A DNA stretch of 37,430 bases from a virus (Duplodnaviria; Caudoviricetes): the IMG/VR virus record IMGVR_UViG_3300020044_002313, positions 1 through 37,430 of that record; one strand, given 5' to 3'. Position 1 is the stretch's first letter. Every line of letters begins with the position of its first letter. A program made the position numbers and the translations under genes. This document shows positions 1-17,773 of this stretch, piece by piece. The notes beneath the pieces are model-generated. The model saw nothing but the letters and a program-made list of their open reading frames with translations, did not search any database and was not told the DNA's origin.

Positions 1-121
1 ATAGCTTCGACCCAGGATGCCGAATGGAGCATTGGCGAGATGCGCATTGATCTGACAAGCGGGGGTGGTCGATGAAAGTCAATCTTCCGCCAGCACCGGC
101 TAAATATGAGCCTGACTACTT
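1..121. repeat. Terminal direct repeat, copy 1 (circular assembly overlap)
   Basis: Bases 1-121 are identical to 37310-37430; the ORFs read continuously across the junction. Confidence 0.97.
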
Positions 122-302
122 TATCAGGGCGTTTGCGGCCATCGATCGGATCTTTAGCAGGACGGTTTCTACCATCGAGGTGACGGATTCCATCCTGCTT
201 CAGTCGCCGAACGGATCAGTGTATAAGGTGACGGTTGGAAACACTGGAACTCTCACAACGACGTTGGTGCCACTTGGACAAACAGGCGCACCTAATTACT
301 AA
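72..302 (+). CDS. Small virion-associated protein following the tail hub gene
   Basis: On the circle its ATG overlaps the stop of 35642..37384 (ATGA); position in the structural operon. Confidence 0.7.
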   Translation: MKVNLPPAPAKYEPDYFIRAFAAIDRIFSRTVSTIEVTDSILLQSPNGSVYKVTVGNTGTLTTTLVPLGQTGAPNY

Positions 303-648
303 GCTTCAGATCGCGCTCGATCACGGTGGCAACACCCATTCGGTCGAAGACGTGTTTGAAGCTTTGCAATCCGGCCAGATGCAAATGCTCTGGAAGGAGA
401 ATTCTGGCGTTGTGACGATGGTAAGCCAGTATCCTCGTAAGCGGGCGATGACGGTTTTCTTGGTCTTTGGCGATATGGACGAGGCGATGACGATGCAGCC
501 TCAGTTGGTCCAGATGGCAAAGGATATGGGCTGCGAGTTTATCGAGATGAGTGGACGAGTGGGCTGGAGCAAGGTTCTGCCCAAATATGGCTGGCATCAA
601 ACGGGCATTTCTCATGCTCTGCCTATTATGGAGATGACACATGGGTAA
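274..648 (+). CDS. Putative GNAT-fold (acetyltransferase-like) morphogenesis protein preceding the ejection proteins
   Basis: Probable TTG start at 274 within ORF 235..648; C-terminal AKDMGCEFIEMSGRVGW pattern; synteny with podovirus gp13/gp14-like genes. Confidence 0.55.
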   Translation: MDKQAHLITKLQIALDHGGNTHSVEDVFEALQSGQMQMLWKENSGVVTMVSQYPRKRAMTVFLVFGDMDEAMTMQPQLVQMAKDMGCEFIEMSGRVGWSKVLPKYGWHQTGISHALPIMEMTHG

Positions 649-1576
649 GAGCGCACCATCGTCTCAGACGGTTGTAAACAAGACAGAACTGCCTCAGTGG
701 GTCCAGGAAGCTGGTCAGAAGAACCTTGCTGCGGCCTACGATGTGTCGGCTAACATGCTTGGCCCATATGAAGGCCAGCGGGTTGCCGGTCTAACGCCTG
801 GCACGGAGCAGGTGGTTGGCAACATCACGCAAAATGCGGCCATGTCGCAGCCTGCCTTTGCCTACGCTCAACAACTTGCGGCGCAAGCTGGCGGGTATCA
901 ACCGACGCAGGTTCAGCCTGGTCAGCTCTCCCAAACCGATCTGTCCCAGTACATGAACCCCTACACGCAGGCGGTTCTTGGGACTTCGCTTGATGTGCTA
1001 AACCAGCAGCGGCTGACCGGGTTGAACCAAGCCTATGACGCGGCTCTGAAGGCCAAGGCTTTTGGTGGATCGCGGCAGGCCATCCAAGAAGGCGTTGTGA
1101 ATGCTGCGGCGCAACAGCAGGCTGGGCAACTGGCGGCGCAGTTGATGGCGCAGAACTATGGGCAGGCGCAGACGGCGGCGCAGGCTGACATTACACGGGC
1201 TATGGAGGCTCAGCGTCTTAATCAGCAGGCTGGTCTATCTGGCGCCCAGTTGGGCATCCAGGGCGCTGGTGCTCTTGGTCAACTGGCTGGCGCTGGTCAG
1301 GAAGCCTATCTAACAGGGCAGACAGGGGCGCTGACGGCTCAATCGCTATTGCAGGCCCAGCAGCAGGCTCAACTTGATGCGGCCCAGCAGGCCTATCGTG
1401 AAGCCCAGCAATTCCCCATCCAACAGCTTCAGATCCCGATCCAGGCTCTTGGTGCAACCCCATATGGCTCTACAAAGACAGAGACAGGGCCAGGGATGCA
1501 GAGCAGTCCATTGCTGAGCGGTCTTGGCGGTGCAGCGTCTGCCGTGTCGATCATGGCCGGACTGGCTTCACTGTGA
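641..1576 (+). CDS. Internal virion/DNA ejection protein (P22 gp7-like position)
   Basis: 311 aa, Q/A/G-rich and helical, Gly-rich hydrophobic C-terminus; SD GGAGA; synteny. Confidence 0.7.
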   Translation: MGKSAPSSQTVVNKTELPQWVQEAGQKNLAAAYDVSANMLGPYEGQRVAGLTPGTEQVVGNITQNAAMSQPAFAYAQQLAAQAGGYQPTQVQPGQLSQTDLSQYMNPYTQAVLGTSLDVLNQQRLTGLNQAYDAALKAKAFGGSRQAIQEGVVNAAAQQQAGQLAAQLMAQNYGQAQTAAQADITRAMEAQRLNQQAGLSGAQLGIQGAGALGQLAGAGQEAYLTGQTGALTAQSLLQAQQQAQLDAAQQAYREAQQFPIQQLQIPIQALGATPYGSTKTETGPGMQSSPLLSGLGGAASAVSIMAGLASL

Positions 1577-2262
1577 TTGATACTGCGCTCCAGTTCTCGG
1601 GCGGCAAGGATAGCCTTGCCTGCCTCTATCTCTATCGTGAGCGATGGGATGATCTCTATGTGGTCTGGCTGGACACCGGGGCATCCTATCCAGAGATGTT
1701 GGAATATATGGAGCGTTGGTCGAAGCGGTTGCCGCATTTCATCCATCTGAAATCGGATCAGCCTGCGAACATTGCGGAAAGAGGATGGCCGGTTGACGTT
1801 CTGCCGATTGAAAACACGGCTCTTGGCAAGGCGATCAGCGGGAATGAAGGCCCAACGATGCAATCTTGCCTGGAGTGTTGCGCGATCAACATCTGGATTC
1901 CCCTATATCAGGGGATCAAGGATCTGGGCTGCACGAAGATCATTAAGGGTCAGAGGATGGATGACAGGCGCAAGTCAACGTCCAAGAATGGACAGATCAT
2001 CGACGGCATCGAGTACATCATGCCGATTGAGGACTGGACCGAAAAGCAGGTGTTCGATTATCTGGCGCAGGTTGGTGCGGATATGCCGCCCGGCTATGGG
2101 CTCGGCGAGAAAACAGGCCGCGATTGCTGGAATTGCACTGGCTTTCTGGACGACAACCGCAAACGCATCCATAATCTGCCAGACAGCAAGCGTGAAGAGA
2201 TGCTGCGCCGCTTGGCAATCATCGACAAGGCAATCGACGACCAGAGGGTGCGTTATGGCTGA
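1573..2262 (+). CDS. PAPS/APS-reductase family PP-loop protein
   Basis: FSGGKDS PP-loop, WLDTG, ECC, KGQRMDD, PIEDWTEKQVFDYL, DCWNC; GTGA coupling to the upstream gene. Confidence 0.85.
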   Translation: MIDTALQFSGGKDSLACLYLYRERWDDLYVVWLDTGASYPEMLEYMERWSKRLPHFIHLKSDQPANIAERGWPVDVLPIENTALGKAISGNEGPTMQSCLECCAINIWIPLYQGIKDLGCTKIIKGQRMDDRRKSTSKNGQIIDGIEYIMPIEDWTEKQVFDYLAQVGADMPPGYGLGEKTGRDCWNCTGFLDDNRKRIHNLPDSKREEMLRRLAIIDKAIDDQRVRYG

Positions 2263-3223
2263 CAATCTGTTTGGCGATCTTGAGCGGCAATATGGTCTCC
2301 CGTCTGGGTTTCTGGCGCGGACGTATCAGATTGAGAGCGGGAGCGGGGCAAACCTCTACAACCCATTGTCAAAAGCTGCTGGCGGTTTCCAGTTTATCCC
2401 AAGCACTGCAAAACAATATGGATTGAAAGACCCATATGATCTTGCGCAGTCGGCTGATGCGGCGGCAAGGCTTGCGGCTGACAATCGTGCTGCATTGCAG
2501 AAAGCTGGGATCGAAAGTCCATCCGCCGCGCAACTCTATCTTGCCCATCAGCAAGGCGCATCTGGCGCGAACAAACTGCTTGGTGGCGCAGATACCAAGG
2601 CCACAGACATTGTGGGCGAAAAGGCTGTTCTTTGGAACGCTGGCAAAGCCTCGATGACAGGCCCAGAGTTTGCCGAGCGCATCATGGCGAAGTTCGAAGG
2701 AACAACGCCTGCTGCGGCTCCTGTTAACTATACGGCTCCCTGGTCAAATGCAGCCAGCGCGTTGGGTGATGTGGATCAAAGGTATCTTGGCGGAAGTCTT
2801 GGATTGCTTCAAAAGCAGGCATCCAATCTGCTGGGCATGGTGACGCCAGAAGGATCGGCATCTTTGCCTGCTGCGGCGCCATCACCCATAGGCTTTACAG
2901 AGCCTGGGCAGAGGTTTGGGGCAAGCCTGCCGCAGTCGCTAATGGGATCTCAGCCACCGGGTGGCGTTGGGCCTATGGCAACGGCTGGAGGCGGTCAGGC
3001 GGCAATGGCGGCTGTTCCTTTAGCTCCAAAGGATACGGGCTTCAGCATCGACAATATGACGGCTGGACAGGCCGCAGGGTTTGCCGGGCTTGGGAATGCT
3101 CTGATAGCAGCGGGCGCCCCAAAGATGACTTGGAAGCCCAGCGGCGAGGCAGCACCAGCCTTTCGAGGGCAGTGGCGTGATGACATCTTTGCCGGGCTGC
3201 TTGGCCCGCGTTCTTGGGGATAA
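2255..3223 (+). CDS. Internal virion protein with N-terminal lytic transglycosylase (SLT-like) domain
   Basis: Start ATG 2255 within ORF 1772..3223; QIES catalytic motif, AAGGFQFIPST, LYLAHQQG; low-complexity C-terminal half. Confidence 0.85.
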   Translation: MADNLFGDLERQYGLPSGFLARTYQIESGSGANLYNPLSKAAGGFQFIPSTAKQYGLKDPYDLAQSADAAARLAADNRAALQKAGIESPSAAQLYLAHQQGASGANKLLGGADTKATDIVGEKAVLWNAGKASMTGPEFAERIMAKFEGTTPAAAPVNYTAPWSNAASALGDVDQRYLGGSLGLLQKQASNLLGMVTPEGSASLPAAAPSPIGFTEPGQRFGASLPQSLMGSQPPGGVGPMATAGGGQAAMAAVPLAPKDTGFSIDNMTAGQAAGFAGLGNALIAAGAPKMTWKPSGEAAPAFRGQWRDDIFAGLLGPRSWG

Positions 3224-3228
3224 CAGAC

Positions 3229-3573
3229 ATGGCGACAATCGAAGACATCAACAGCATGTATCTCGGTCTGACCGGCACCCCCGGCGATCCGCAGATCCTC
3301 GGCTATCTCTATGACGCCATCAACAATGGCAGAATGACGATCGGGGACGTGCGAGCAATGATCGCCCCGCAACAGGCTATGCCTGCTGGTCTGCTTGGTC
3401 CAGCGCCTCAGCAGGCGCCGCAGATCAACCCAGAGATCGCCAATGCCTTCATGCAATCGCTGCTCTATCAATCGCAGTTGCCGGGCATGAATCGCATGGA
3501 GAACCCAACTGCCAGAGGTCAGGCATATACGCCTCCTATGCCAACGCCAACTCGTGTAAGCTGGTCGAAATAA
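3229..3573 (+). CDS. Small P/Q/M-rich protein, probable internal virion protein
   Basis: ATG 3229 just after the previous stop; lies between ejection-protein genes. Confidence 0.65.
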   Translation: MATIEDINSMYLGLTGTPGDPQILGYLYDAINNGRMTIGDVRAMIAPQQAMPAGLLGPAPQQAPQINPEIANAFMQSLLYQSQLPGMNRMENPTARGQAYTPPMPTPTRVSWSK

Positions 3574-3611
3574 CTGCTGGGTGTCCCGGCTACAGATGAT
3601 GAGGACGACAC

Positions 3612-5261
3612 ATGGCTGAGAATGACTTCCTGAGCGGCCTTCTGGGGGGCGCAAAAGACGTTGGCAGTTCGATCTATGGCTTCCTGGGTGGCGGCGAGCA
3701 GACGCCTGCTGCTGGTGGGCAGATGCCTGATAGCATGTCGATGATGTCACAGGCTGATCAAAGGCGGCTGATGTTCTCGACATTGGGTCAGGTTGGTGCG
3801 GCGTTGCTGGCTGCTGGCGCCCGTCAGTCGCCGGAAAGCAGGGCGCAGGCGTTGGCTCAGCTTGGCAAGATCGGCCCAGGCATTGAGGAGTCGATGCAGA
3901 GGAATGCGGCGCTTCAGCAGCAGAGGATCGCGGCGCAGCGGCAGAATGAGCTTTTCCCCATACAACTTGCAGCGGCAAGGGCTGGGCTCGCACAGCAGAA
4001 CATTGGGCAGGCTAAGAGTATCCTTGAACTTCAAGGGCAGGCATCGGCCTTGCAAAGACAGATTGCTACTTACGATCAAATCGGCCTTCCAGACCAGGCA
4101 AATGCGGCGCGTGGGCAGCTTTCCAATATCCAGCAGGTAATCAGGTCATTGCCTTCTGGTGGTGGCGCTCCTGCTGGTGCGCCCGCTCCTGCTATGGGGC
4201 AGACATTGCCAACTATGGCGACTCCTGCCGCAATCACTCCTGCTCAGCCAACAGTGACAACCGTTCCTGCGCCTGTTCAGATTACTGGAACAGAACTTCC
4301 TCCTCCTGTTGAGGGTGCGCCTGCACCTATGGTTCCGGCGCCTGCGGTTCCTGCGCCTCCTGTTACTCAAGCACCTGCTGTTTCACAGTTCGATCAATAT
4401 GTGAAAACAAATCTTCCCTATTTAACATCTGAGCGGGTTCGGTCTGTATTTGCTGCAAAGCCTGGAGACCCGGCTGGTGCGATGGCTGATCTTCTGAAGT
4501 TGAATGAAGATTCCCAGCAGCAGCAGTTGACGAATGAAACAAAAGTCAGAAATGACTTCAGCCCAAAAGCTGACCGATATGACACAATCCAGAAAGCATA
4601 TCTCACGCTTCCGAACTTAGGAGACCTGAAGAGCGGCATATCTGACCATGCTCTGATCCTATCCTATTACAAAATATTTGATCCGGGATCTGTTGTCTCG
4701 ACAAACGAAACAGGACAACTGCAAGCATCAAGCGGCGCACTTGATAGCGCATTGCAAGGCAGATTGAACAAGGTGCTGACAGGTGAGTTGCTGACTCCAA
4801 AAGAGCGGATGGATCTCTACGCATCAGCAAAGGCTAAATTCGAGCAGGAATATACCTCCTATGAGAAGGCTTATGGATCGGCAGTCAAGAATGCAGAAGC
4901 GTTCAAGCTAGATCCAGAACGGTCAGTGCCTGATGTTCGTGATCCTCAGGTTATTTCAACAGTTAGACGTGAGCGTGATCTGGCTGACATTTCCAGAAAG
5001 ATCAGCGCAAACGAGGTTATGACACTTGGACTAGAAGACCTTAACCTCCTGGACCCAAGCAAGATGACTAAGCCTGCAAGGGATGCAGCAAAAGCACAAC
5101 TTGATCGGCTCCAAAAAGCTGCAATGGTTCCGCCTCCTGTAGCCACAACAGAACAGCCACAGCAAGGCTACGGGCTTGGGCAGAACCCGTTGCGCGGCGC
5201 AATGCAAAATTATCCTCGCGGTCTTCTGCGTGAGAACCAACTTCCCCCCGTTGGATACTGA
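3612..5261 (+). CDS. Internal virion/ejection protein (gp20-like position)
   Basis: 549 aa; Q/A-rich N-terminus, Pro-rich linker, helical C-domain; SD GAGGA. Confidence 0.7.
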   Translation: MAENDFLSGLLGGAKDVGSSIYGFLGGGEQTPAAGGQMPDSMSMMSQADQRRLMFSTLGQVGAALLAAGARQSPESRAQALAQLGKIGPGIEESMQRNAALQQQRIAAQRQNELFPIQLAAARAGLAQQNIGQAKSILELQGQASALQRQIATYDQIGLPDQANAARGQLSNIQQVIRSLPSGGGAPAGAPAPAMGQTLPTMATPAAITPAQPTVTTVPAPVQITGTELPPPVEGAPAPMVPAPAVPAPPVTQAPAVSQFDQYVKTNLPYLTSERVRSVFAAKPGDPAGAMADLLKLNEDSQQQQLTNETKVRNDFSPKADRYDTIQKAYLTLPNLGDLKSGISDHALILSYYKIFDPGSVVSTNETGQLQASSGALDSALQGRLNKVLTGELLTPKERMDLYASAKAKFEQEYTSYEKAYGSAVKNAEAFKLDPERSVPDVRDPQVISTVRRERDLADISRKISANEVMTLGLEDLNLLDPSKMTKPARDAAKAQLDRLQKAAMVPPPVATTEQPQQGYGLGQNPLRGAMQNYPRGLLRENQLPPVGY

Positions 5262-5269
5262 GGTGATTT

Positions 5270-7288
5270 ATGGCTGACGACAACATTCTTGATCGCCTGA
5301 AGTCCTACAGAACGGCAGGGCAACCTGAGACGGCTGTTGGCCCTAGTGCGGCTGATGCAGCGCAGGCTGAGATGCTGCGCATTGCACAGACGCGCTCTAA
5401 GTTTGGCTTGCAGCCATCTAGTAGCATTTGGCGTGATGTCGTTGGCCGTGGAGTTATCGGGCAAGGACTGGCAATGGGCGGTGGCGATGAAGTTGAAGCC
5501 TATGCACGGTCTTTGGTTTCTGGAACGCCTTATGAGTCAGAGCTTGCAAAAGTTCATGGCGAGATTGCTGTTGCTAAGGCTGAGCGCCCTATAGCGATGG
5601 GGGCTGCTGAACTAGGTGGCGCTGTTCTTCCTGCTGCTGCGACGTATTTCATCCCTGGTATGCAAGCAGCGGCTCCTGCTGCAACTGCAAGGACTGCTGG
5701 GCTGGTTGCGCAGATCGTTCGTGGTGCTGGTACTGGCGCTGTTGTTGGCGGTGGTACAGGAGGCGTTGAGGGCTTCCTAAAGGGTGAGGGTGGGGCAGGC
5801 GCACGGCTTGATAAGGCGGCTGAAGGCGCAATGATGGGCGGCTTGTTTGGCGGCACTATTGGCGGCGCTCTGCCGCTTGCAAAAGGTGCCTTACAAGCGT
5901 TCAACGCTCCTGCTGAACAGGTTGCGGCAACTCGTTTGCAGAACGTCTTGCAGCGTGAAGGAACTGACATCGAGGCCGCAACCCAACAATATATGGCTCG
6001 TCAGGCAACTGGTGCAAAACCTGAAATCATGGCTGATGTGTATGCTGGCGGTCCCGTGTTTATGGAGTCGCGCCGGGTTGCCAATATGCCTGGTGAAGCC
6101 ACTGCATTGGCACAGCAAACGTTGAGCGAGCGAGCAAAGACACAAGGTCCGCGCATCCAGTCTGCTTTTGAAGAGATGGCTGGGACTGATGCTAAATTCT
6201 ATCCTGTGATGAAAGAACTAGAGACAGTTCGCAGCACAACTGCTGCGCCTTTGTATAAAGAGGCATATCCGCAGCCTGCTCGATCTGCCGCAATTGATGA
6301 CGTATTGATACGCGTTGAGGACTCCGTGTTTGACGAGGCCAGGAAGGCTGCTCGGGATGAGAAGCTGATCTTCCCAAACCTTGTTCAGCGCAATGTAGGT
6401 GGGGAAGCCAAGGTTGTTGGCGACTACACCATCAAAGAAGTCGATATGGTGAAGCGTGGACTGGACTCTATCATTGAAAGTGGAACCGATATAACCGGGA
6501 AACTGAATGAGTCGGCTCGACGTGCTTTCCGTCAAAAACAGCAGCTTACCAAGGCGGCTGATGAGGCTGTTCCAACTTATGCTGCGGCTCGATCTGCCTG
6601 GGCTGGACCCAGTGCAGTTATGGACTCGATGAAAAAGGGACAGCGCATCTTTAATGAACGTGCTGAAAATTCATTGAGCGATATTGTCAGCATGGGCAAG
6701 TCTGAAAAGGAAGGCTTTCTTGTCGGCGTCTTGGATTCGGTCCAGCAGCGCATTGATGCTGTTATGGCCGGAACAGATACCAGCAGGCGCTTCCTTTCTG
6801 GTCTGAACAAAAAACAGATCGAAGCGGCGGCATCTGCTGTTGCCAAAGACCCTGTTGAAGCCAAGGTTATCGCGAATAAGTTGATCGACAACATTGAGCG
6901 CGAGTTTCGCATGGCTGAAACAAAGCGTGGCATCAAAGGTGTTTCGGCTACAGCAGGATTGCAGGCAGAGCAGCAATCAGCTTTGCAGCAGGCTGGCACG
7001 GCTGGGAGCATACTGACGCAGCTTGCACAAGGAATGTCGCCAACGTCTATGGCGGCTCGCGGCGTTCAGGGTGGGCTGAGCCGATTGGCAACTGGTGTGA
7101 CCGGCAAGCGCATGGAAGATGTCAACCAGGAGCTTGCCAAGTATCTATATGCTAAAGATCCAGCGGCATTGCAGGCCCAGACTAGCCGCCTGATGCAGGC
7201 TTTGCAGCAAAAAGGGCAACAGGCAATGCCGTCCAGGCGCGAGCAACTGATCCCTGGCTTGCTAGGTGGGTCATACGGCTCACGCTGA
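5270..7288 (+). CDS. Large internal virion/ejection protein (gp16-like position)
   Basis: 672 aa; Gly/Ala-rich membrane-like segments; last gene before the terminator; SD GAGGTG. Confidence 0.7.
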   Translation: MADDNILDRLKSYRTAGQPETAVGPSAADAAQAEMLRIAQTRSKFGLQPSSSIWRDVVGRGVIGQGLAMGGGDEVEAYARSLVSGTPYESELAKVHGEIAVAKAERPIAMGAAELGGAVLPAAATYFIPGMQAAAPAATARTAGLVAQIVRGAGTGAVVGGGTGGVEGFLKGEGGAGARLDKAAEGAMMGGLFGGTIGGALPLAKGALQAFNAPAEQVAATRLQNVLQREGTDIEAATQQYMARQATGAKPEIMADVYAGGPVFMESRRVANMPGEATALAQQTLSERAKTQGPRIQSAFEEMAGTDAKFYPVMKELETVRSTTAAPLYKEAYPQPARSAAIDDVLIRVEDSVFDEARKAARDEKLIFPNLVQRNVGGEAKVVGDYTIKEVDMVKRGLDSIIESGTDITGKLNESARRAFRQKQQLTKAADEAVPTYAAARSAWAGPSAVMDSMKKGQRIFNERAENSLSDIVSMGKSEKEGFLVGVLDSVQQRIDAVMAGTDTSRRFLSGLNKKQIEAAASAVAKDPVEAKVIANKLIDNIEREFRMAETKRGIKGVSATAGLQAEQQSALQQAGTAGSILTQLAQGMSPTSMAARGVQGGLSRLATGVTGKRMEDVNQELAKYLYAKDPAALQAQTSRLMQALQQKGQQAMPSRREQLIPGLLGGSYGSR

Positions 7289-7310
7289 TAACTCACTGAT
7301 TATTAACGAT

Positions 7311-7358
7311 AAATGGCGGTTGTGGAAAAAATATCCATGACCGCCATTTTTCCTGTTT
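7311..7358 (+). terminator. Intrinsic terminator ending the late operon (possibly bidirectional)
   Basis: AAATGGCGGT-TGTGGA / TCCATG-ACCGCCATTT stem with G:U pairs, followed by a T-rich tail. Confidence 0.75.
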
Positions 7359-7384
7359 ACAAAATCTTTTTTGCATAATAAATT
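7356..7384 (+). promoter_or_regulatory. Sigma70-like early promoter
   Basis: TTTACA-N17-TAAATT in an AT-rich intergenic region upstream of the early genes. Confidence 0.6.
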
Positions 7385-7434
7385 ATTTTACATGGGCTGG
7401 TGATTCGCACCGCCCTGCAACGGGGTCAAACGAT

Positions 7435-7584
7435 ATGTACGCAGTTCTTTACCGTCCCAAGGATGCCGGATGGCGTCATGTTGGCGATCATGCCGCAATG
7501 TTCAACACGCTGCGCGATGCCTGCCGCTACGCAATCAAGATGAATGGAGACCGCACCGGTCCTTTCTATTATTGGGTGGCGTGA
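7435..7584 (+). CDS. Hypothetical early protein, 49 aa (MYAVLYRPKDAGW...)
   Basis: Translated by hand; TGATG coupling to the next ORF. Confidence 0.65.
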   Translation: MYAVLYRPKDAGWRHVGDHAAMFNTLRDACRYAIKMNGDRTGPFYYWVA

Positions 7585-7772
7585 TGAAGATCGAAAGCGA
7601 GTTTCCTACAGAATACATTGAGCTTCAGATAGCCGCCCGCAACATCGCTGACTGCTCTTTGCTGGTTTACTATGCCACGGATGAGGCCGCGCAACTGCGG
7701 CACAAGCTGGAACTCCAGCATCATCTGAAGCGGTTCAAGAAGATCATGGAGGAACTGGAATGTCAGGGATGA
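7584..7772 (+). CDS. Hypothetical early protein (MKIESEF...)
   Basis: ATG overlaps the previous stop; 3' part of ORF 7470..7772. Confidence 0.65.
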   Translation: MKIESEFPTEYIELQIAARNIADCSLLVYYATDEAAQLRHKLELQHHLKRFKKIMEELECQG

Positions 7773-7969
7773 AGCAAGCCCACTATTGGCAGCGGCAGGA
7801 GGATCGCTGGCATCAGCAGTATCTCTTGGCAGAACGTCTTTGCGACACATTGGAGCAGCGCATCTATGAACTGGAACAGGCTATCATCGACGCTGACAAA
7901 TATCCGATGCCGTTGGAGCTTCGGGAAAAACTTCGCAGTGTTCTGGGAGGCAATCATGCGGGTCAGTAG
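7760..7969 (+). CDS. Hypothetical coiled-coil protein
   Basis: SD GGAGG at 7748-7752; heptad pattern. Confidence 0.7.
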   Translation: MSGMKQAHYWQRQEDRWHQQYLLAERLCDTLEQRIYELEQAIIDADKYPMPLELREKLRSVLGGNHAGQ

Positions 7970-8153
7970 CGTCAACCGTCCGATCTTCAATATGCGGTTC
8001 AACAGGCCGCTCATGCAGCGCAAATGCCCACTCTGCAATCTGACGACAGGTGTTCTGATTCCGCAGAACCAGGCTCTCAGGGAGTTGGGGATCTACGGTG
8101 GCACACATGCCCATCTAGTTTGCGTCCAGGATGCAAGGGAGCAACGGCAATGA
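7956..8153 (+). CDS. Small putative Zn-binding protein
   Basis: SD GGAGG; CPLC...HLVC; coupled to the next gene. Confidence 0.6.
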   Translation: MRVSSVNRPIFNMRFNRPLMQRKCPLCNLTTGVLIPQNQALRELGIYGGTHAHLVCVQDAREQRQ

Positions 8154-8359
8154 AGGCAACTTTAAATGGGGCAAGCATCCGTTCAGAACTGATGCATAAG
8201 ATTGAGACCTATCTGGTCAAAAACAAAGTAAGCGCGACGCGCTTTGGTTACATGAGTACAGGCGACCCGTCCTTGATAACCAAGCTTCGAAACGGCGGCG
8301 ACATCCGCCTGCAAACCCTTGAGAAAATCATGCAATTTATGATGGATCAGAAGAAGTGA
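8150..8359 (+). CDS. Cro-like HTH DNA-binding protein
   Basis: IETYL..NKVSATRFG...GDPSLITKLRNG.DIRLQTLEKI pattern typical of alphaproteobacterial phage HTH proteins. Confidence 0.75.
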   Translation: MKATLNGASIRSELMHKIETYLVKNKVSATRFGYMSTGDPSLITKLRNGGDIRLQTLEKIMQFMMDQKK

Positions 8360-8784
8360 CTGAAGCATCACGGGCTCAAAAACTGCTCATCCAGCAGAAC
8401 GATGAAATAAATGTGTTAAGAAATCGAGTCGCAGAATTGGAGGAGGAGAACCGCCAGCTCCGTAAAGAAATGATCGGGACAGATTATGTGTTCTTTGACT
8501 TTCTATCTAACCACCAGACGAAGCTCTTGATGGGAATTTATAACCGCCCTGTAGCTGACTACGCCTACCTCGACAGGATCACCGAGCAGGGCGAAAAATA
8601 CAACCGCTACACCGACATCAACCATGAGGCTTTGCGCAACAGAGTGTCGATCTGGATGCTGCGCAAGAAGATGCGAGAACACGGCATCGAGATAAAGACG
8701 TGGCGTGGTGTCGGCTACTATCTGGATGATGAGAACAAGGCAAAACTGCGTGGCCTACTTAACACATCCGCAGAACGTGTTTAA
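8356..8784 (+). CDS. Coiled-coil plus OmpR/CtrA-type winged-helix DNA-binding protein
   Basis: C-terminal IWMLRKKM...IEIKTWRGVGYYL; no receiver domain. Confidence 0.75.
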   Translation: MTEASRAQKLLIQQNDEINVLRNRVAELEEENRQLRKEMIGTDYVFFDFLSNHQTKLLMGIYNRPVADYAYLDRITEQGEKYNRYTDINHEALRNRVSIWMLRKKMREHGIEIKTWRGVGYYLDDENKAKLRGLLNTSAERV

Positions 8785-8803
8785 AAAACGGGAGAAAGTT
8801 AAC

Positions 8804-9073
8804 ATGAGCGATGATCTTGTGAAGCAACTGCGGGTCGAAGCGCTGATCGCCGACGAGGACTGGACCGGGATTTATCAGATCTCGCCTAATCTGGCGTTTG
8901 CCGCAGCCAACCGCATCGAGAAGCTGGAGGCGGAGTTACATCACTGTTTTCACCGTATTGAAGAACTACAGGCGGCGCTGCGAGAGATAGCTGAAGATGC
9001 AGAAGATGAGTTTGCGTCAGCAAAGGACATGGGGTGGATCGCCCGCAAAGCACTGGAGGGGAAAGATGACTGA
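8804..9073 (+). CDS. Mini-gene array member 1 (MSDDLVKQLR...RIEKLEAEL...ALEGKDD)
   Basis: SD GGAGA; motifs shared with the next two ORFs. Confidence 0.7.
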   Translation: MSDDLVKQLRVEALIADEDWTGIYQISPNLAFAAANRIEKLEAELHHCFHRIEELQAALREIAEDAEDEFASAKDMGWIARKALEGKDD

Positions 9074-9296
9074 CTATGATTGCAAAACAAACGGTCATCA
9101 TTGGATAGACCACCCTGAAGACGGGCGGTTTTGTTTTTATTGCGATGAAAAATACGATTTTGTGCAACTTTATAATCGCATCGAGAAGCTGGAAGCGGCG
9201 CTGCGGACTGTAAAGGAGTGGCACGGCTATGGTCTACCACTGGAGACAACTCGCATAATCGACGCAGCTCTGGAGGGTAAAGATGACGTTGATTGA
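9066..9296 (+). CDS. Mini-gene array member 2 (Cys/His-rich N-terminus, RIEKLEAAL...ALEGKDD)
   Basis: SD GGAGG; start overlaps the previous gene. Confidence 0.7.
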   Translation: MTDYDCKTNGHHWIDHPEDGRFCFYCDEKYDFVQLYNRIEKLEAALRTVKEWHGYGLPLETTRIIDAALEGKDDVD

Positions 9297-9483
9297 AATG
9301 CTCCGCGCCAACGGGAGTTGGGAAGCTGATGCTGCGGCAGGCAAATTACAATTACAAGCCGACCGCATCGAGAAGCTGGAGGCGGCGTTAAAAAAGATAG
9401 CGTTGGACGAACCAGACTGCTGCATGGTTGCAGACAGGATGCGCGAAACCGCTGAAATTGCACTGGGGTTGAAAAATGACTGA
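9283..9483 (+). CDS. Mini-gene array member 3 (ADRIEKLEAAL...IALG)
   Basis: SD GGAGG; shared motif. Confidence 0.7.
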   Translation: MTLIEMLRANGSWEADAAAGKLQLQADRIEKLEAALKKIALDEPDCCMVADRMRETAEIALGLKND

Positions 9484-9613
9484 TTATCAACTGGCGCTTC
9501 TTAACATCGCAGCAACCATGTTCACGCTGGTAATCGTGATCGGCTGCAACGGGGCAGTCTTGTTCCTCGGATTAATGATTTGGCAACTTATTCAAGATAA
9601 GTTCGATCTGTAA
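9476..9613 (+). CDS. Small membrane protein, 45 aa
   Basis: Hand-translated MTDYQLALLNIAATMFTLVIVIGCNGAVLFLGLMIWQLIQDKFDL; long hydrophobic stretch. Confidence 0.6.
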   Translation: MTDYQLALLNIAATMFTLVIVIGCNGAVLFLGLMIWQLIQDKFDL

Positions 9614-9634
9614 CGCAAACACGGGGTCAAAACG

Positions 9635-9727
9635 ATGAAAACGGTTATCTATGAAATCGCCAATATGCTCGCTGCATTCGCGGCAGTCGCCATGATCTTC
9701 ACCGCCTGCATAGTTTTGGGAGGTTAA
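9635..9727 (+). CDS. Small membrane peptide, 30 aa
   Basis: Hand-translated MKTVIYEIANMLAAFAAVAMIFTACIVLGG; preceded by the GGGGTCAAA motif. Confidence 0.55.
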   Translation: MKTVIYEIANMLAAFAAVAMIFTACIVLGG

Positions 9728-9728
9728 G

Positions 9729-9917
9729 ATGAAACCAATCACATGCGAAATAGGGTTTGACGGTGTCTATTCCGTCAAATACTTTAACAGGCAGATCGGA
9801 TGGATACAGCAAAGCAGGGTCAAAAAGATATGGAGGGCGCTCAGTTGGAACGGGGACTTGAAACACACAAAAACGCTTCGAGAGGCACGACGCTACCTGG
9901 TGGAGAATTTCAGGTAA
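9729..9917 (+). CDS. Hypothetical basic protein
   Basis: SD GGAGGT; 62 aa. Confidence 0.7.
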   Translation: MKPITCEIGFDGVYSVKYFNRQIGWIQQSRVKKIWRALSWNGDLKHTKTLREARRYLVENFR

Positions 9918-10417
9918 AGGATTGGGAGCAGCACTACAAGGATGTTCGCAACAGGCTCAACGGCATCAAGGCCCAGCCAAAGCAGATCGAGATCATCATT
10001 CCACCGGCTGAGATGCTGGCTCTTCCAGAGCCAGAGCCTGAAACACCAAAGCCAATGTTCTCCCGTGATGACCTGCTGATAACGCAGGGTTGTCTTCGGG
10101 ATAGGGTCAGGCAGATCGTTCTTCCGATCCTGCACAAACACAAGATGACATGGAGGCAATTAGTTGGACAATCAAGAACACGACCACACATCCTACTCCG
10201 ACGCGAGGCTTGGTTCGCTCTTATCTCAAATGGATACGGATTTGCGGAAACAGGTCGATTATGCGGTAGAGACCACACGACCATCTTACATGCAGTCAGA
10301 CAATGGAAGCTCAATAATGGATCAGAATATCGACACTATCTTATCGACGAGGGAGATGACCCACGGCTCGTATGTGGAGCAATCAACGGCATCGCAGACG
10401 CTAAAACGCCTATGTGA
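9800..10417 (+). CDS. Protein with DnaA C-terminal (domain IV)-like HTH; start uncertain
   Basis: SRTRPHILLRREAW...ETGRLCGRDHTTILHAV matches the DnaA-IV signature GxDHTTVxHA. Confidence 0.75.
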   Translation: MDTAKQGQKDMEGAQLERGLETHKNASRGTTLPGGEFQVKDWEQHYKDVRNRLNGIKAQPKQIEIIIPPAEMLALPEPEPETPKPMFSRDDLLITQGCLRDRVRQIVLPILHKHKMTWRQLVGQSRTRPHILLRREAWFALISNGYGFAETGRLCGRDHTTILHAVRQWKLNNGSEYRHYLIDEGDDPRLVCGAINGIADAKTPM

Positions 10418-10613
10418 GCAGGCGAGGAACTGGGATCAGATGCCGTGTTATATGCGTGAGAGCGTTCACCTGATCCAACAGAAAGTCGCTCGCATCATCT
10501 GTGGCGATCCATTCGAGCGCGATCATTGGGTTGACATCATGGGCTATGCAGCGCTGGTGCTGCGGGAATTGGACAGGTTGCAACAGGAGGGCAGAAATGA
10601 CGGATCAGCCTAA
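10317..10613 (+). CDS. DUF6378-like small helical protein (possibly nucleotide metabolism)
   Basis: IL..RE.THG....K.ARI..GD....DHW.DI.GYA.L pattern. Confidence 0.7.
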   Translation: MDQNIDTILSTREMTHGSYVEQSTASQTLKRLCEQARNWDQMPCYMRESVHLIQQKVARIICGDPFERDHWVDIMGYAALVLRELDRLQQEGRNDGSA

Positions 10614-10872
10614 CAGCCAACTGACACGCATCGTCGAGCGCATCGAGAAGCAGGAGGACGAAATCAGCCTTCTGAAGCAGGATGTGAAAGACATCTATAC
10701 CGAGGCCAAGGGCAACGGATACGACATCAAGATCATCCGCAAGATCATCGCCATGCGGAAGATGGACGAGACAAAGCGCAAGGAAGAAAGCGCGATCCTT
10801 GCAGCCTATATGCGCGAAATCGGGATGACGCCTTTAGAGATGGTTATCCAAAAAAACAGGGATGCTGAATAA
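10597..10872 (+). CDS. gapR: GapR / DUF2312 nucleoid-associated protein homolog
   Basis: QL..IVERIE..E.E......D.KDIY.EAKG.GYD.KIIRKIIA.RK.D pattern; SD AGGAGG. Confidence 0.88.
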   Translation: MTDQPNSQLTRIVERIEKQEDEISLLKQDVKDIYTEAKGNGYDIKIIRKIIAMRKMDETKRKEESAILAAYMREIGMTPLEMVIQKNRDAE

Positions 10873-11084
10873 TGGAACGCAATACAGAAACCTGCCTGAC
10901 TTGCCGCTTCACCAAAGAGAAGACGGGCGGTTCTCTCACCTGCCTGCGCTACCCAAACCAAACAAGGGTCGCCAGGACGCAATGGTGCGGCGAGTGGCAG
11001 GCAGACAAGATCCCTACTGAGCGGCGTAAGCGCTCTGCAATGGAGATCGCTGATCCCGTTCTGAGCAAGGAGGCCGAGGAATGA
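10872..11084 (+). CDS. Small Cys-rich protein
   Basis: CLTC...CLRYP...WCGEW motif common in phage small proteins. Confidence 0.7.
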   Translation: MERNTETCLTCRFTKEKTGGSLTCLRYPNQTRVARTQWCGEWQADKIPTERRKRSAMEIADPVLSKEAEE

Positions 11085-11293
11085 GCTACCGCGTTCGCAA
11101 CACGCAGGACTTCTTCAGGATCATCGAGAAGGAGCGCAAACGGCAGGAGAAATCCACCAGAGCGGTCAGTGACGAAGCCAACGTGTCTTCGGCAACCTAT
11201 TCTGCCTCGATGAAGTCTGGATCTTGCACCCTGAAGACAGCTCTGGCCTATGCAAAGGTCATGGGCTTTGAAGTGAGGCTCGAATGGCCGTGA
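11081..11293 (+). CDS. XRE-like HTH protein
   Basis: RKRQEKSTRAVSDEANVSSATY....SG..TLKT...YAKVMG; SD GAGGA. Confidence 0.7.
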   Translation: MSYRVRNTQDFFRIIEKERKRQEKSTRAVSDEANVSSATYSASMKSGSCTLKTALAYAKVMGFEVRLEWP

Positions 11294-11754
11294 TACTTGC
11301 AATTGATCCAGGCGCATCAGGGGCGCTGGCGTTCTTCAACCCAGAGACTGGTATGCTCGACGTTGAGGACATGCCGACGCTGGAGGTCAAACGCGGAAAC
11401 AAGATGAAGCGCGAGATCAGTCCTCAGATGCTGGCAGGGATCATTGCATCACGCAAACCAGACAGAGCCATCATCGAACTGGTGGGGGCAATGCCTGGTC
11501 AGGGCGTTACCAGCATGTTCGCCTTCGGGAAATCCTACGGTCTTTGCATCGGTATTTGCGCTGGCCTACAGATCCCGGTGGAGCATGTGACTCCCATCAA
11601 GTGGAAGAAAGCAGTCGGCGCCCGCGAGGGCAAAGATGGAAACAGGATGCGGGCGGCAGAGTGCTTCCCCGCATATGCCCACCTGTTTCGACGGGTCAAA
11701 GATGACGGCAGGGCAGACGCTGCTCTGATCGCCTTCTGGGCAGCAACGCAATAG
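11284..11754 (+). CDS. RuvC-like Holliday junction resolvase
   Basis: ILAIDPG, IIE, FAFG..YG, VTP.KWKK, DGRADAAL motifs. Confidence 0.88.
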   Translation: MAVILAIDPGASGALAFFNPETGMLDVEDMPTLEVKRGNKMKREISPQMLAGIIASRKPDRAIIELVGAMPGQGVTSMFAFGKSYGLCIGICAGLQIPVEHVTPIKWKKAVGAREGKDGNRMRAAECFPAYAHLFRRVKDDGRADAALIAFWAATQ

Positions 11755-11764
11755 GAGAGGACAA

Positions 11765-12559: not shown

Positions 12560-12585
12560 AACGTCGAACCGAAGGAAACGGTAAA

Positions 12586-13173
12586 ATGGAAAACGCAAAT
12601 ACACGCATTGTCGTCAAGGATGCTCGTTTCGCCTATGTCCACCTGCTCGAGCCTCGCGCCGCGGCAGAGGGTGCGGAAGCCAAGTACAGCGTCACCCTGA
12701 TCATTCCGAAGACGGACGAAGCAGGCATCGCAGCGATCAAGGCTGCGATGAAGGCTGCGGTGTCCAAGAAGTTCGGGGACAAGCCGCCAAAGGGTCTGCG
12801 CAACCCGCTGAGGGACGGAGACGAGAAGGATGCCGAGTCCGGCGAGTACATGAAGGGCGATGAGTTCCGGGGCAACTGGTATCTGTCAGCATCCAGCAAG
12901 AAGCCAGTTCGCGCTCTTGCGGGCAAGGCTCGCCTTCCAGCTACAGAAGATCATCTGCAATCCGGCAACTATGGGGCGGCAGAGTTGAACTTCTACGGCT
13001 ACGATGCTGCGGGCAACCGGGGTGTCGCGGCTGGGTTGAACGGTGTCTGGATCACTCGGAAGGGTGAGCCTCTGGGTTCTGGCGCAACCGATTGGGGCGT
13101 GATCGAGGCAGAGGACTTTGGAACGCCTGCAACCGCAGCAACCGCCAGCATGTCATCGGATGACGTGTTCTAG
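12586..13173 (+). CDS. Single-stranded DNA-binding protein (DUF2815, T7 gp2.5-like)
   Basis: RFAY.HL.EP, KYSVTLIIPK, NPLRDGD, GNRGV.AGLN, acidic C-terminus ending in F. Confidence 0.88.
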   Translation: MENANTRIVVKDARFAYVHLLEPRAAAEGAEAKYSVTLIIPKTDEAGIAAIKAAMKAAVSKKFGDKPPKGLRNPLRDGDEKDAESGEYMKGDEFRGNWYLSASSKKPVRALAGKARLPATEDHLQSGNYGAAELNFYGYDAAGNRGVAAGLNGVWITRKGEPLGSGATDWGVIEAEDFGTPATAATASMSSDDVF

Positions 13174-13186
13174 TCTCTGAACGAAA

Positions 13187-17770: not shown

Positions 17771-17773
17771 TGC

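Follow-up and report, generated by a model that had tools for sequence, protein, structure and literature searches.

A PAPS-reductase-fold enzyme gene alternates with the Peptidase_S74 domain at the C-terminus of a phage DNA-ejection protein

What does an enzyme with the fold of a PAPS reductase do among the DNA-ejection genes of a phage? The question arises from the window analyzed here (the whole stretch, positions 1..37,430), which is a complete 37.4-kb phage. A PP-loop enzyme of 229 aa with a GTG start is encoded on its plus strand at 1573..2262 (PF01507, E 3.2e-16), in the late operon and 3' of the genes for a GNAT-fold protein and a gp7-like ejection protein. The family to which it belongs is routinely labelled CysH or PAPS reductase and, in the accessible part of the literature, is taken for an "auxiliary metabolic gene" of sulfur metabolism or for a moron. 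The evidence says that this sulfur-metabolism reading is wrong for the enzyme family. Our best reading is that the enzyme is made late, stays out of the virion, and uses ATP to mature the C-terminal tail of the ejection protein, a link that we infer and a chemistry that we predict.

The operon genes around the enzyme all lie on one strand, and the enzyme gene overlaps both neighbors. Its GTG start and the TGA with which the upstream gene (641..1576, plus strand) terminates overlap in the string GTGA, and the downstream gene begins with an ATG at 2255, giving an 8-nt overlap with the enzyme stop (ATGGCTGA). The upstream product is a Gln/Ala-rich, gp7-like DNA-ejection protein of 311 aa with the N-terminus MGKSAPSS (phrog_4287, "DNA ejection protein", 5e-15). 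The downstream product (2255..3223, plus strand) is an internal virion protein of 322 aa with an N-terminal lytic-transglycosylase-like domain (phrog_22520, 5.5e-30; transglycosylase phrog_4067, 1.6e-14; Pfam SLT weak at 0.0049, under the curated cut-off), and this gene slot was variable among relatives. The GNAT-fold protein (235..648, plus strand) is listed with 137 aa, the true start being perhaps ~11 codons later, and had no match in Pfam. Its AF2 model (pLDDT 85.3) was closest to the Ard1 N-terminal acetyltransferase 4r3k (VIA Z 11.5), followed by NatA and RimI, and all 50 rows of the VIA search were GNATs.

Three motifs define the enzyme family: the PP-loop SGGKDS (residues 9-14, 1597..1614, plus strand), invariant in alignment A1; the Cys-Cys pair C102/C103 (1876..1881, plus strand), conserved at 100% and 99% in 134 family representatives; and a CxxC formed by C185 and C188 inside the string DCWNCT (2125..2136, plus strand), both at 100% in the same representatives, with D184 and T189 at 93% each. 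Conservation within the PP-loop was 98% for D13, 97% for G11, 96% for S9 and S14, and 90% for G10, and residue 12 was K in 109 of the 134 and R in 15. SGGKDS is placed after strand 4-7 in the AF2 model (pLDDT 94.7). Two further cysteines were set aside: C99, in the local string CLECC, is not conserved, and C17, a candidate catalytic Cys that is invariant in the close set, is Cys in just 72 of the 134 representatives. Residues 189-229 hold zero Cys; with none past C188, there is no ECGLH-type catalytic cysteine, the C-terminal motif of CysH. The aligned C-termini of 39 A1 sequences likewise lack a catalytic Cys (a single Cys lies in a long, non-aligned extension). An earlier note on this DNA had described an ORF with SGGKDS and CC...CxxC that overlaps both neighbors and lacks the ECGLH motif, and both statements were confirmed, with family matches far beyond chance (PF01507, 3.2e-16; phrog_424, 2.6e-24). 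The family is large, with 685 homologues at E<=0.001 (739 candidates scored) and 301 clusters at 50% identity (E<=1e-30), and the Atlas clusters closest to it are 78-95% viral.

By its SGGxDS motif and the Rossmann-like alpha/beta fold of its model, the enzyme is probably a member of the PP-loop ATP pyrophosphatase superfamily; in a comparison set of GMP synthase, TilS, QueC, and NAD synthetase, the fold matched at Z 12.3 to 2dpl, 11.6 to 1ni5, 10.3 to 3bl5, and 9.9 to 3p52. The best structural matches were CysH PAPS/APS reductases (7rge, 2goy, 6vpu, and 7lhr; Z 13.8-15.4 over 163-177 residues), with VIA Z-scores of 15.4 to 7rge, 13.9 to 2goy, and 13.8 to CysD 1zun, and PF01507 is common to them and the enzyme (60.3 bits versus a cut-off of 22.5). 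The CC...CxxC pattern resembles the site that binds [4Fe-4S] in APS reductases; a profile alignment of enzyme residues 92-189 to residues 131-228 of the M. tuberculosis APS reductase was weak (E 0.19).

The enzyme has the PAPS-reductase fold but is not CysH. Where solved PAPS reductases have the degenerate loop SFGIQA, the aligned loop of the enzyme is the canonical SGGKDS; unlike CysH, the enzyme also lacks a C-terminal catalytic Cys, and it is 15-19% identical to the solved proteins. The database name, the Pfam domain, and the papers on phages JC1 and CSP3, which describe the homologue as a moron or a CysH for sulfate reduction, all speak for a functional PAPS/APS reductase by which the phage would enhance sulfate assimilation in its host. 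The curated scores, however, lie about 5-9 fold under their cut-offs: 36.7 bits versus 154 for NCBIfam PRK02090, 30.9 versus 165.1 for TIGR00434, 29.3 versus 254.2 for TIGR02057, and 22.7-26.3 versus 235.3 for TIGR02055 (APS reductase). The ATP-type PP-loop, which is not the degenerate CysH form, the missing C-terminal catalytic Cys, and translational coupling within a structural operon, in which neither a promoter nor a terminator was found for the gene itself, argue in the same direction. In a scan of positions 1..8000, promoter-like and terminator-like matches were not clearly above shuffles, and none brackets the enzyme gene. An auxiliary metabolic role is thus hardly credible, and the view of the earlier note that this is not a sulfate-assimilation gene holds, given the failed curated models, the canonical loop, and the absent cysteine.

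CysD, the small subunit of ATP sulfurylase, whose partner is CysN, comes closer in one respect: it keeps SGGKDS as the enzyme does (1zun; Z 13.8, rmsd 2.5). In the CysD reaction, an oxygen nucleophile receives AMP from ATP. It differs in lacking a Cys cluster in the sequences seen (the CysD-like relatives L187 and L173), and the enzyme scored 27 bits versus a cut-off of 195 with the NCBIfam CysD models. Both relatives came from a profile search of genome contigs that covered 2 of 64 parts and returned relatives at 22-27% identity; the pattern FSGGKDS was too general, and neither prophage context nor an APS reductase for alignment came from these parts. LarE (8cnz), TtuA with TtuB (5gha), and the Dph6-like 3rjz have the fold in common with the enzyme (Z 9.3-11.0), but they are structurally further than CysH or CysD, show no sequence-level family match, and act on cofactors, tRNA, and EF2.

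Kinship through PF01507 and structural neighbors such as NcsA, TtuA, LarE, and QueC (VIA Z 9-11) would also suit an enzyme of nucleic-acid or nucleotide modification, namely DndC/SspD-like phosphorothioation, QueC-like base synthesis, or tRNA thiolation, whose place in the late operon would be incidental. PADLOC returned weak matches to SspD (1.9e-5), BrxP (1.5e-4), and QueC (2.1e-4), which, however, cover the PP-loop or the CxxC stretch only. A full-length match to DndC or SspD failed (SspD 1.9e-5 over residues 6-58; DndC 0.04 over 35 residues); the QueC family PF06508 gave no match at E<=0.01, and NCBIfam QueC gave 16 bits versus a cut-off of 378. A precomputed PF06508 tag was present on 2 of 120 listed enzyme homologues. 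PHROG annotation of the 45 submitted ORFs of the 37.4-kb genome revealed no Dnd/Ssp partner genes (cysteine desulfurase, DndD/E, or SspA/B/C), which argues against this reading. The phage carries a second gene of the PAPS-reductase family, which is SspD-like (1.1e-14), adjoins a ParB-methyltransferase gene, and is the better candidate for DNA modification than the enzyme at 1573..2262. A nucleic-acid target, which would also leave the fixed place behind one protein's tail and the exclusivity described next unexplained, is improbable.

That place became clear from comparing relatives of the ejection protein, in which a Peptidase_S74 domain (PF13884; detected with an HMM) can occupy the position of the enzyme. 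The union of four seeded samples, three of them seeded with the enzyme or an S74-bearing protein and with contigs overlapping among samples, gave 244 loci and 158 distinct ejection proteins whose downstream DNA could be assessed; of these, 76 had the enzyme, 66 the S74 domain, 16 neither, and 0 both. The S74 domain begins at the spot where the enzyme gene would begin. The sample seeded by the ejection-protein core alone was scored as 31 enzyme, 24 S74, 11 neither, and 0 both; two "neither" contigs carry the enzyme, giving corrected counts of 33, 24, and 9. In MW202496, phiM5, OH, and DB2, the S74 domain was confirmed by Pfam, and the enzyme was found in none of these; the S74-bearing protein of MW202496 and the ejection protein of the window share 60% identity. 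The start of the enzyme gene lay 0-3 nt from the ejection-gene stop in 75 of the 76 distinct cases. The neighborhood survey thus bore out the earlier note's claim of a late gene tied to the ejection gene, with homologues that are not randomly placed.

On a tree of the ejection core, the enzyme is gained or lost at least 10 times, and five of these changes are forced by supported branches (FastTree and IQ-TREE). Enzyme and S74 were opposite in all five supported independent pairs (10 pairs when every branch is counted), and a sign test on the five supported switches gave p 0.0625. A recombination hot spot at the gene boundary could yield part of the alternation pattern. A strict requirement for one or the other was rejected because 16 of the 158 have neither device, which is also a counterpoint to the tail-maturation reading. 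The tails of these proteins are mostly of a glycine-zipper kind (for example, ...GGLLGLLG), and the nine such loci of the ejection-core sample mostly run straight into a lysozyme-like gene.

The common element of the two arrangements is the hydrophobic, Gly/Ala/Ser-rich C-terminal tail of the ejection protein, which in the window is encoded at 1508..1573 (plus strand) and ends ...LLSGLGGAASAVSIMAGLASL (alignment A3). Among 56 distinct enzyme-type tails, the last residue was L in 31, F in 16, M in 8, and I in 1, and the penultimate residue was S in 34, A in 11, and T in 5. The cleavage serine of S74-type relatives comes after the equivalent tail; an S74-type end reads ...GLGAASSIASIIGML/SD (slash, cleavage position), and the similar enzyme-type end reads ...GLGAAASAASLIGTIASL-stop. 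The S74 domain, an intramolecular chaperone otherwise found in tailspikes and fibers, is released by self-cleavage and, like the enzyme, is not expected in the mature virion; it differs in having an unrelated fold and chemistry, and it acts in cis with no need for ATP. Alternation with S74 at the tail therefore narrows the link of the enzyme to the C-terminal tail of the ejection protein. The suggestion in the earlier note that the enzyme modifies ejection proteins or DNA survives in its first half, refined to the tail of one protein, while its DNA half gained no support.

Since the enzyme gene stands behind the ejection gene exactly where relatives have S74, it likely helps finish the hydrophobic end of the ejection protein. 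We put at roughly 40% the probability that this PAPS-reductase-fold PP-loop enzyme, with its four invariant cysteines and distinct from CysH, acts on the tail of the upstream ejection protein, with a predicted ATP-dependent adenylation of the terminal carboxylate by which the end is capped or processed before packaging. The enzyme would meet the same need as S74, the handling of a C-terminal tail, nonpolar and unstructured, for as long as the protein is in the cytoplasm before assembly, and translational coupling would bring it to the tail during synthesis. Alternation with an intramolecular chaperone domain would be explained most directly if the enzyme were itself a nucleotide-dependent assembly chaperone that, in trans, binds the tail or aids oligomerization as S74 does in cis, without covalent change; translational coupling and absence from virions fit as well. 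A full catalytic PP-loop and four-Cys site kept across 134 representatives, together with methyltransferase fusions that point to chemistry over mere binding, nevertheless make a chaperone unlikely, and we know of no PP-loop protein that acts as one.

The opposite end of the ejection protein was also considered. Ejection proteins begin MGK, MGG, or MSG, which would suit a different late target of the enzyme, such as the glycine-rich N-terminus of another virion protein, a lipid, or a component of the envelope; a recombination hot spot would then have placed the gene next to the tail by accident. The variable downstream gene suggests a shuffling boundary, and published QueC-family enzymes act, according to the accessible part of the reports, on N-terminal glycine motifs. 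On the other side, among loci with upstream sequence, a GNAT-type gene precedes the ejection gene in 80 of 81 of the enzyme type and 55 of 58 of the S74 type. Since both this gene and the N-terminal motifs are the same in the two types of phage, the enzyme varies with the C-terminal state and not with the N-terminus. N-terminal lipidation (a Met-Gly start plus a GNAT) was rejected as an explanation for the enzyme on the same ground, the starts being mixed, with MD, MP, and MA also present. A different late target is accordingly rather unlikely, the more so as the enzyme remains associated with a tail even when no homology between the upstream proteins can be detected.

Such cases are found among distant homologues. 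Bcep22 gp73, JC1 gp65, CSP3 orf41, and a Ralstonia phage "cysH" are 37-40% identical to the enzyme over 96-98% of its length and carry the same motifs (Bcep22 gp73: 39.8% identity, 96% of length, E 8e-45; blastp 3e-54). The gene order of Bcep22-like phages is that of the window, with an acetyltransferase-type gene, a virion protein of ~280-330 aa with a Gly/Ala-rich hydrophobic tail, the enzyme, and virion proteins; these phages differ in size (~60 kb versus 37.4 kb) and have a giant DarB-like protein downstream. In Bcep22 and Heva, too, the enzyme directly follows the tail-bearing virion protein, and the C-terminus of Bcep22 gp70 reads ...GTIAGAGIMAF. No homology between the neighbor proteins of Bcep22 or Heva and those of the window was found by hhalign, blastp, or hmmsearch, so the synteny is positional and architectural only. 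Among distant members (30-50% identity; Bcep22-like phages and methyltransferase fusions), the preceding ORF has a Gly/Ala-rich hydrophobic tail with F, I, Y, L, V, or M as its last residue in ~64 of 79 cases; only 3 of the upstream ORFs were detectably homologous to the ejection protein of the window, and S74 was found in 0 of 72. The linkage proposed in the earlier note thus extends to distant members as an upstream virion-type protein with the same kind of tail.

The earlier note had also proposed co-injection, for example of an anti-defense factor. The gene does sit among those for ejected or internal virion proteins, and in Bcep22-like phages a gene for a DarB-like antirestriction protein lies two genes downstream. 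Virion proteomics of JC1 (Table 6 of that paper; 16 proteins from CsCl-purified particles) nevertheless detected the flanking products gp64, gp67, gp68, and gp69 and not gp65, the homologue of the enzyme, which speaks against the proposal and makes co-injection very unlikely. Counterparts of the ejection protein itself are present in virions, namely JC1 gp64 (by position) and phiM5 p27 (a sequence relative, according to its record note). As to the note's claim of an undescribed system, annotations of Bcep22-like phages already include the enzyme gene at this place, where it is called a moron or CysH, and only the claim to novelty of function stands, in that a literature search found no paper on the function of the enzyme-family gene. 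What is new here is the comparative evidence, the alternation of enzyme and S74 among 158 relatives.

From family chemistry only, a PP-loop enzyme is predicted to adenylate an oxygen nucleophile with release of PPi, and the obvious candidate nucleophile on the tail would be the free alpha-carboxylate after the conserved L, F, or M. From the adenylate, the product would be an amide, a thiocarboxylate, or an ester. Carboxylate-activating PP-loop enzymes, some of which carry Fe-S clusters, are known: LarE produces thiocarboxylates, Dph6 amidates a carboxylate carried on a protein, and the active site of TtuA takes the C-terminal tail of TtuB. Of 17 longer enzyme homologues, 16 are SAM-methyltransferase fusions, which suggest an extra methylation step; these fusion-type relatives were found with profile A5, and a single-sequence search with the fusion protein P0124 gave no matches. 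The four cysteines are predicted to bind a [4Fe-4S] cluster of the APS-reductase kind or perhaps, like QueC, zinc; with all four as cluster ligands, no iron site would be free for sulfur transfer. It is a tentative and somewhat doubtful proposal that the enzyme caps the alpha-carboxylate, first by ATP-dependent adenylation and then by amidation, thiocarboxylation, or, in forms with the fused methyltransferase, esterification; such a cap would be a post-translational modification of a new kind in virion assembly, and the enzyme would stand in for S74 without being orthologous to it. A chemical cap is not obviously needed, because S74 cleavage leaves the tail with an ordinary free carboxylate.

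PP-loop enzymes that work on flexible protein termini have precedents in Cap9-CdnD (9nto) and QatC-QatB. The nearest solved relatives of the enzyme act on nucleotides or sulfate, not on proteins. Cap9 (type IV CBASS) and QatC (QatABCD) are described, in the accessible part of the reports, as QueC-family enzymes acting on a flexible end of a partner protein, where they target N-terminal glycines and conjugate deazaguanine, whereas the link of the enzyme is to a C-terminus. Cap9 has the PP-loop fold in common with it (Z 10.6 to the Cap9-CdnD complex 9nto), and the Cap9 profile matched the CxxC region of the enzyme at E 0.0052. If the target is a protein C-terminus, the protein-directed roles of PP-loop enzymes would extend from N- to C-termini, and if the capping reading is true, many viral "cysH auxiliary metabolic genes" are mislabelled. 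Ejection proteins are the least understood parts of podophage virions; the repeated swap of the enzyme gene and S74 at one C-terminus points to an unrecognized step in their making and gives a concrete, testable substrate.

Around this core, the block is headed by a conserved small ORF of 76 aa (72..302, plus strand) that had no family match in Pfam or PHROG; a tblastn match to it was found 5' of the GNAT-like gene in 74 of 83 other tabulated loci, the misses being mostly loci without upstream sequence. The operon contains three more late genes (119, 549, and 672 aa; 3214..7288, plus strand) that likely encode internal or ejection proteins (phrog_13634 and phrog_5880, both of unknown function), and the counterparts of this region in relatives are annotated as internal virion or DNA injection proteins. 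The operon ends in a strong terminator-like hairpin with a 16-bp stem and a T tail (7311..7349, plus strand), located by sequence scan.

The complete 37,430-bp IMG/VR record carries direct terminal repeats and has all its genes on the + strand. PHROG and Pfam scans placed in it a late region of the P22/Bcep22 style, comprising a 580-aa virion structural protein (35642..37384), a 76-aa ORF reached 3' of it across the permuted ends, a 137-aa GNAT-like protein (235..648), a 311-aa gp7-like ejection protein (641..1576; phrog_4287, 5e-15), the PP-loop enzyme under study (1573..2262, GTG start, 229 aa), a lytic-transglycosylase-like internal protein (2255..3223), and three further genes, with a strong terminator at 7311-7349 closing the block. 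No promoter or terminator was found bracketing the enzyme gene; its GTG start shares GTGA with the ejection-gene stop, and the ATG of the downstream gene (2255) lies 8 nt ahead of the enzyme's stop. As read from the DNA, the gene is late and operon-embedded, with its start coupled to the stop of the ejection gene. ORF reading confirmed what the earlier note had seen, namely the PP-loop, CC...CxxC, and the overlaps with both neighbors; it puts SGGKDS at residues 9-14, Cys-Cys at 102-103, and CxxC at 185-188, with no cysteine in the remaining C-terminal residues. Among 134 family representatives, C102, C185, and C188 were kept in 100% and C103 in 99%, while conservation of the PP-loop residues was 90-98%; C99 of 'CLECC' was unconserved, and C17 was a cysteine in only 72. 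The four conserved cysteines would most simply form a metal site, which by analogy with APS reductases would hold [4Fe-4S], with QueC-like zinc as the alternative.

The enzyme matched PF01507 PAPS_reduct (Pfam, 3.2e-16) and phrog_424 (PHROGs, 2.6e-24) and missed all curated NCBIfam models widely: CysH PRK02090 (36.7 bits vs 154), APS reductase TIGR02055 (26.3 vs 235.3), CysD (27 vs 195), and QueC (16 vs 378). The AlphaFold2 model (39 sequences) was confident (pLDDT 94.7, pTM 0.88), and an all-against-all structural search placed it nearest to the PAPS/APS reductases 7rge (Z 15.4), 2goy (13.9), 6vpu and 7lhr (both 13.8), with CysD 1zun (13.8) and the PAPS-reductase-like domain of FAD synthase also among the nearest, followed by GMP synthase (12.3), TilS (11.6), LarE with [4Fe-4S] (11.0), NcsA (10.8), Cap9 (10.6), and QueC (10.3); Foldseek was consistent with this. 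Solved PAPS reductases have a degenerate SFGIQA at the position aligned to SGGKDS, whereas CysD, the ATP-using relative and neighbor of CysH, retains SGGKDS as the enzyme does. The protein is thus a PP-loop enzyme of the ATP type, built on the scaffold of PAPS reductases but without their catalytic cysteine. The CysH scores far under their cut-offs, the ATP-type loop, and the missing cysteine bear out the earlier claim that this is not a sulfate-assimilation gene. The JC1 paper labels the homologue a moron and gives it a likely role in sulfate reduction, and the CSP3 paper likewise ties it to sulfate; this published reading fails the tests made here.

Homologues numbered 685 at E<=0.001 among 739 candidates (90% clusters), with 301 clusters at E<=1e-30 in an exhaustive search of 50% clusters, and the nearest Atlas clusters were 78-95% viral. 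The GenBank phage collection held 43 records with the enzyme (31 Ralstonia, 10 Burkholderia, 1 Aeromonas, and 1 uncultured). A profile scan of bacterial genomes (loci L170-L249) returned mostly distant relatives (22-27% identity) sharing FSGGKDS, and two inspected matches were CysD; with about 33,000 stretches in bacterial genomes estimated to match that pattern, the scan is uninformative on prophage or host origin. The enzyme belongs to the family of Bcep22 gp73 ('PAPS reductase-like protein'), which lies in the order gp69 (acyl-CoA N-acyltransferase), gp70 (virion protein), gp73, gp74 (virion protein), and gp75 (DarB-like protein), an order repeated in Ralstonia phage Heva. In Bcep22-like phages the gene and its position were already known, and in this respect the system is not undescribed, as the earlier note had proposed; the alternation with Peptidase_S74 and the association with a tail type were not found in print, and no literature linking PAPS reductases with ejection proteins or intramolecular chaperones was found.

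Among 80 IMG/VR loci collected with the enzyme profile, the order of small ORF, GNAT-like gene, ejection gene, and enzyme gene was kept in nearly all with sufficient flank; the gene downstream was variable, and the enzyme was often more conserved than its neighbors. The 412-aa ejection protein of MW202496 (60% identity to the window's over 305 residues) ends in Peptidase_S74 (PF13884, 9.5e-9), a self-cleaving intramolecular chaperone domain that begins exactly at the serine in ...ALLALLGG/SDERLKTDV; the enzyme gene is absent there, and an internal virion protein follows directly. The same arrangement, S74 on the ejection protein and no enzyme, was found in phiM5, Ochrobactrum phage OH, and Octadecabacter virus DB2, while Microcystis phage MJing1 has neither. 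Further samples of 80 loci each were seeded with an S74-type protein, with the ejection-protein core alone, and with a profile built from distant fusions of methyltransferase and enzyme. The first two samples and the named phages gave 83 loci with enzyme only, 60 with S74 only, 7 with neither, and 0 with both (in this set the ejection gene was cut short at 5 loci, and the DNA beyond it was unknown at 6). The core-seeded sample was scored at 31, 24, 11, and 0, respectively, and corrected to 33, 24, 9, and 0, as the enzyme was seen in other samples on the contigs of 2 loci among the 11 scored 'neither'. The samples are seeded and mutually overlapping; when the first three and the named phages were dereplicated (244 loci, fusion-seeded loci being analyzed separately), the 158 distinct assessable ejection proteins comprised 76 with enzyme only, 66 with S74 only, 16 with neither, and 0 with both, a further 21 being truncated or without downstream DNA. 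The enzyme and the cis-acting, self-removing chaperone are thus mutually exclusive at the same tail. The gene-neighborhood survey proposed in the earlier note found the linkage conserved, the enzyme's first profile position projecting to 0-3 nt after the final base of the ejection-gene stop in 75 of 76 cases, that is, with overlapping or abutting codons. The GNAT-like gene was present in both types (80/81 and 55/58) and is therefore constant; only the enzyme alternates with S74.

Loci with neither device (L348, L355, L358, L367, L370, L384, L386, L390, L406, and L088, which is MJing1) mostly have glycine-zipper ejection tails (...GGLLGLLG, ...LLGGIAGA), and in most with a readable flanking ORF a lysozyme-like gene comes straight after; MJing1 has an extra 113-aa ORF with no assigned function between the two. 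In two close relatives the ejection ORF is longer than the usual ~310 aa: at L021:3026-4126 (366 aa) the frame continues over the enzyme start because a stop was lost or the frame shifted, which may be an error of assembly, and at L010:3907-5004 (365 aa) the tail is normal and the extra length lies elsewhere.

A tree was built from 129 distinct ejection-protein cores after the S74 part had been cut away. It requires at least 10 changes of the enzyme state (5 forced by supported branches) and at least 12 of the S74 state (7 forced), against means of 43 and 41.5 changes after label shuffles. Independent contrasts yielded 5 pairs when only supported branches counted and 10 when all did, and enzyme gain coincided with S74 loss in every pair; the sign test on 5 pairs gave p 0.0625, a number of pairs that cannot reach 0.05. 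The numbers were unchanged with IQ-TREE on 117 rows with long branches left out. Well-supported switches number only five.

Ahead of the S74 serine, the tail agrees with the C-terminus translated from enzyme-type genes (e.g., ...GLGAASSIASIIGML followed by SD, vs ...GLGAAASAASLIGTIASL-stop). S74 cleaves before this serine, and with matching tails its self-cleavage would therefore yield roughly the C-terminus that an enzyme-type gene encodes outright. The last residue of 56 distinct tails in the close set was L (31), F (16), M (8), or I (1), with S (34), A (11), or T (5) as the main penultimate residues; ahead of the S74 serine the penultimate residue was mostly G. The C-terminal end is constrained in the close set. 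The fusion-seeded sample reached enzymes 30-50% identical, many on ~60-kb Bcep22-like contigs; the ORF directly upstream had a Gly/Ala/Ser/Met-rich hydrophobic tail ending in F/I/Y/L/V/M at about 64 of 79 loci, and none of 72 upstream ORFs carried S74. A separate methyltransferase ORF intervened in 7 loci, and 7 had no upstream ORF >=150 aa by the rule used. The window's ejection-protein profile matched only 3 of these upstream ORFs, and Bcep22 gp70 (...GTIAGAGIMAF) and its Heva counterpart (...GTIGGAALMAF) showed no homology to the window's protein by blastp, HMM, or hhalign. What the enzyme travels with is thus a type of tail rather than a single protein family.

A nonpolar C-terminal tail whose carboxylate is free marks a protein for degradation by ClpXP, FtsH, and Tsp, and membranes take up tail-anchored segments. 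Arguing from this general knowledge, we suggest that the enzyme and S74 cope with the same liability, a nonpolar, unstructured tail that has to last in the cytoplasm until it arrives at the procapsid. Where S74 is present, the tail becomes terminal only once the trimer has folded and cut itself; in enzyme-type phages it is terminal from the outset, and the enzyme, translated on the same ribosome, would encounter it immediately. We give a functional link between enzyme and tail a probability of about 0.65. Adenylation is the PP-loop class reaction on carboxylates (QueC, NAD synthetase, LarE, and Dph6), and the predicted chemistry is adenylation of the tail's terminal alpha-carboxylate, with the adenylate then resolved into an amide, thiocarboxylate, or ester. 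That the link includes such covalent, ATP-dependent chemistry is put forward tentatively, at somewhat under even odds. The carboxylate is also free after S74 cleavage, and the need for a cap is therefore not obvious. About a tenth of the relatives do without either device, which counts against a strict requirement. The solved relatives act on nucleotides and sulfate, which counts against a protein target. A purely chaperone role, against which the conserved PP-loop and cysteines speak, is a less likely alternative, as are a nucleic-acid target and an unrelated late target. Published work describes PP-loop enzymes acting on flexible protein ends, namely Cap9 with CdnD and QatC with QatB. Table 6 of the JC1 paper, on CsCl-purified virions, lists gp64, gp67, gp68, and gp69; gp63 (acetyltransferase) and gp65 (the enzyme homologue) are missing from that virion list. 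We class the protein as a PP-loop enzyme of the PAPS-reductase fold with a predicted role in protein maturation.

Among longer homologues, 16 of 17 were class-I SAM methyltransferases fused N-terminally to the enzyme, with PP-loop and cysteines retained and a methyltransferase part generic by sequence; in these forms methylation would follow. Fused and split forms occur among homologues P0122-P0138 and loci L250-L329, the split form at 7 loci; one longer homologue, P0134 (411 aa), has an unassigned N-terminal domain in place of the methyltransferase.

In the product of a second PAPS-reductase-family gene (17708..18577, +, 289 aa) the loop is degenerate (SLGAGVQS), and CTFC and, C-terminally, ECEGMCGV are present; the protein matched phrog_424 (4.1e-45) and the PADLOC SspD model (1.1e-14) and had no Pfam match. 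It looks unrelated to the first, with marginal similarity only (best blastp E 0.002 over 32 residues), and its gene is flanked on one side by the small terminase region and on the other by a ParB-N/DNA-methyltransferase fusion (18553..19872; phrog_498, 3.3e-140), directly after which comes the large terminase (19869..21272); another DNA methyltransferase gene lies at 14829..15794 (phrog_363, 8.3e-83). Its product is likelier to be a DNA-directed enzyme than that of 1573..2262.

The 137-aa protein was modeled as a GNAT fold (pLDDT 85.3) and had no Pfam or PADLOC match; its best 50 structural rows were all GNATs, with Ard1 and NatA, both N-terminal acetyltransferases, and RimI at the top (Z 10.9-11.5; Foldseek in support). 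Its start codon is uncertain: the listed TTG overlaps the 76-aa ORF by 68 nt, and ORF calling in close relatives puts the start ~11 codons later (126 aa), with the first codon read as Cys in the protein alignment. The ejection protein downstream begins MGK, MGG, or MSG in most relatives. Residues 9-34 of the transglycosylase-like protein (26 residues) share 46-50% identity with the C-terminus of Bcep22 gp67 and with a small protein of Heva (L003:131-379; blastp E 1e-4 to 5e-4) and may be a shuffled short module.
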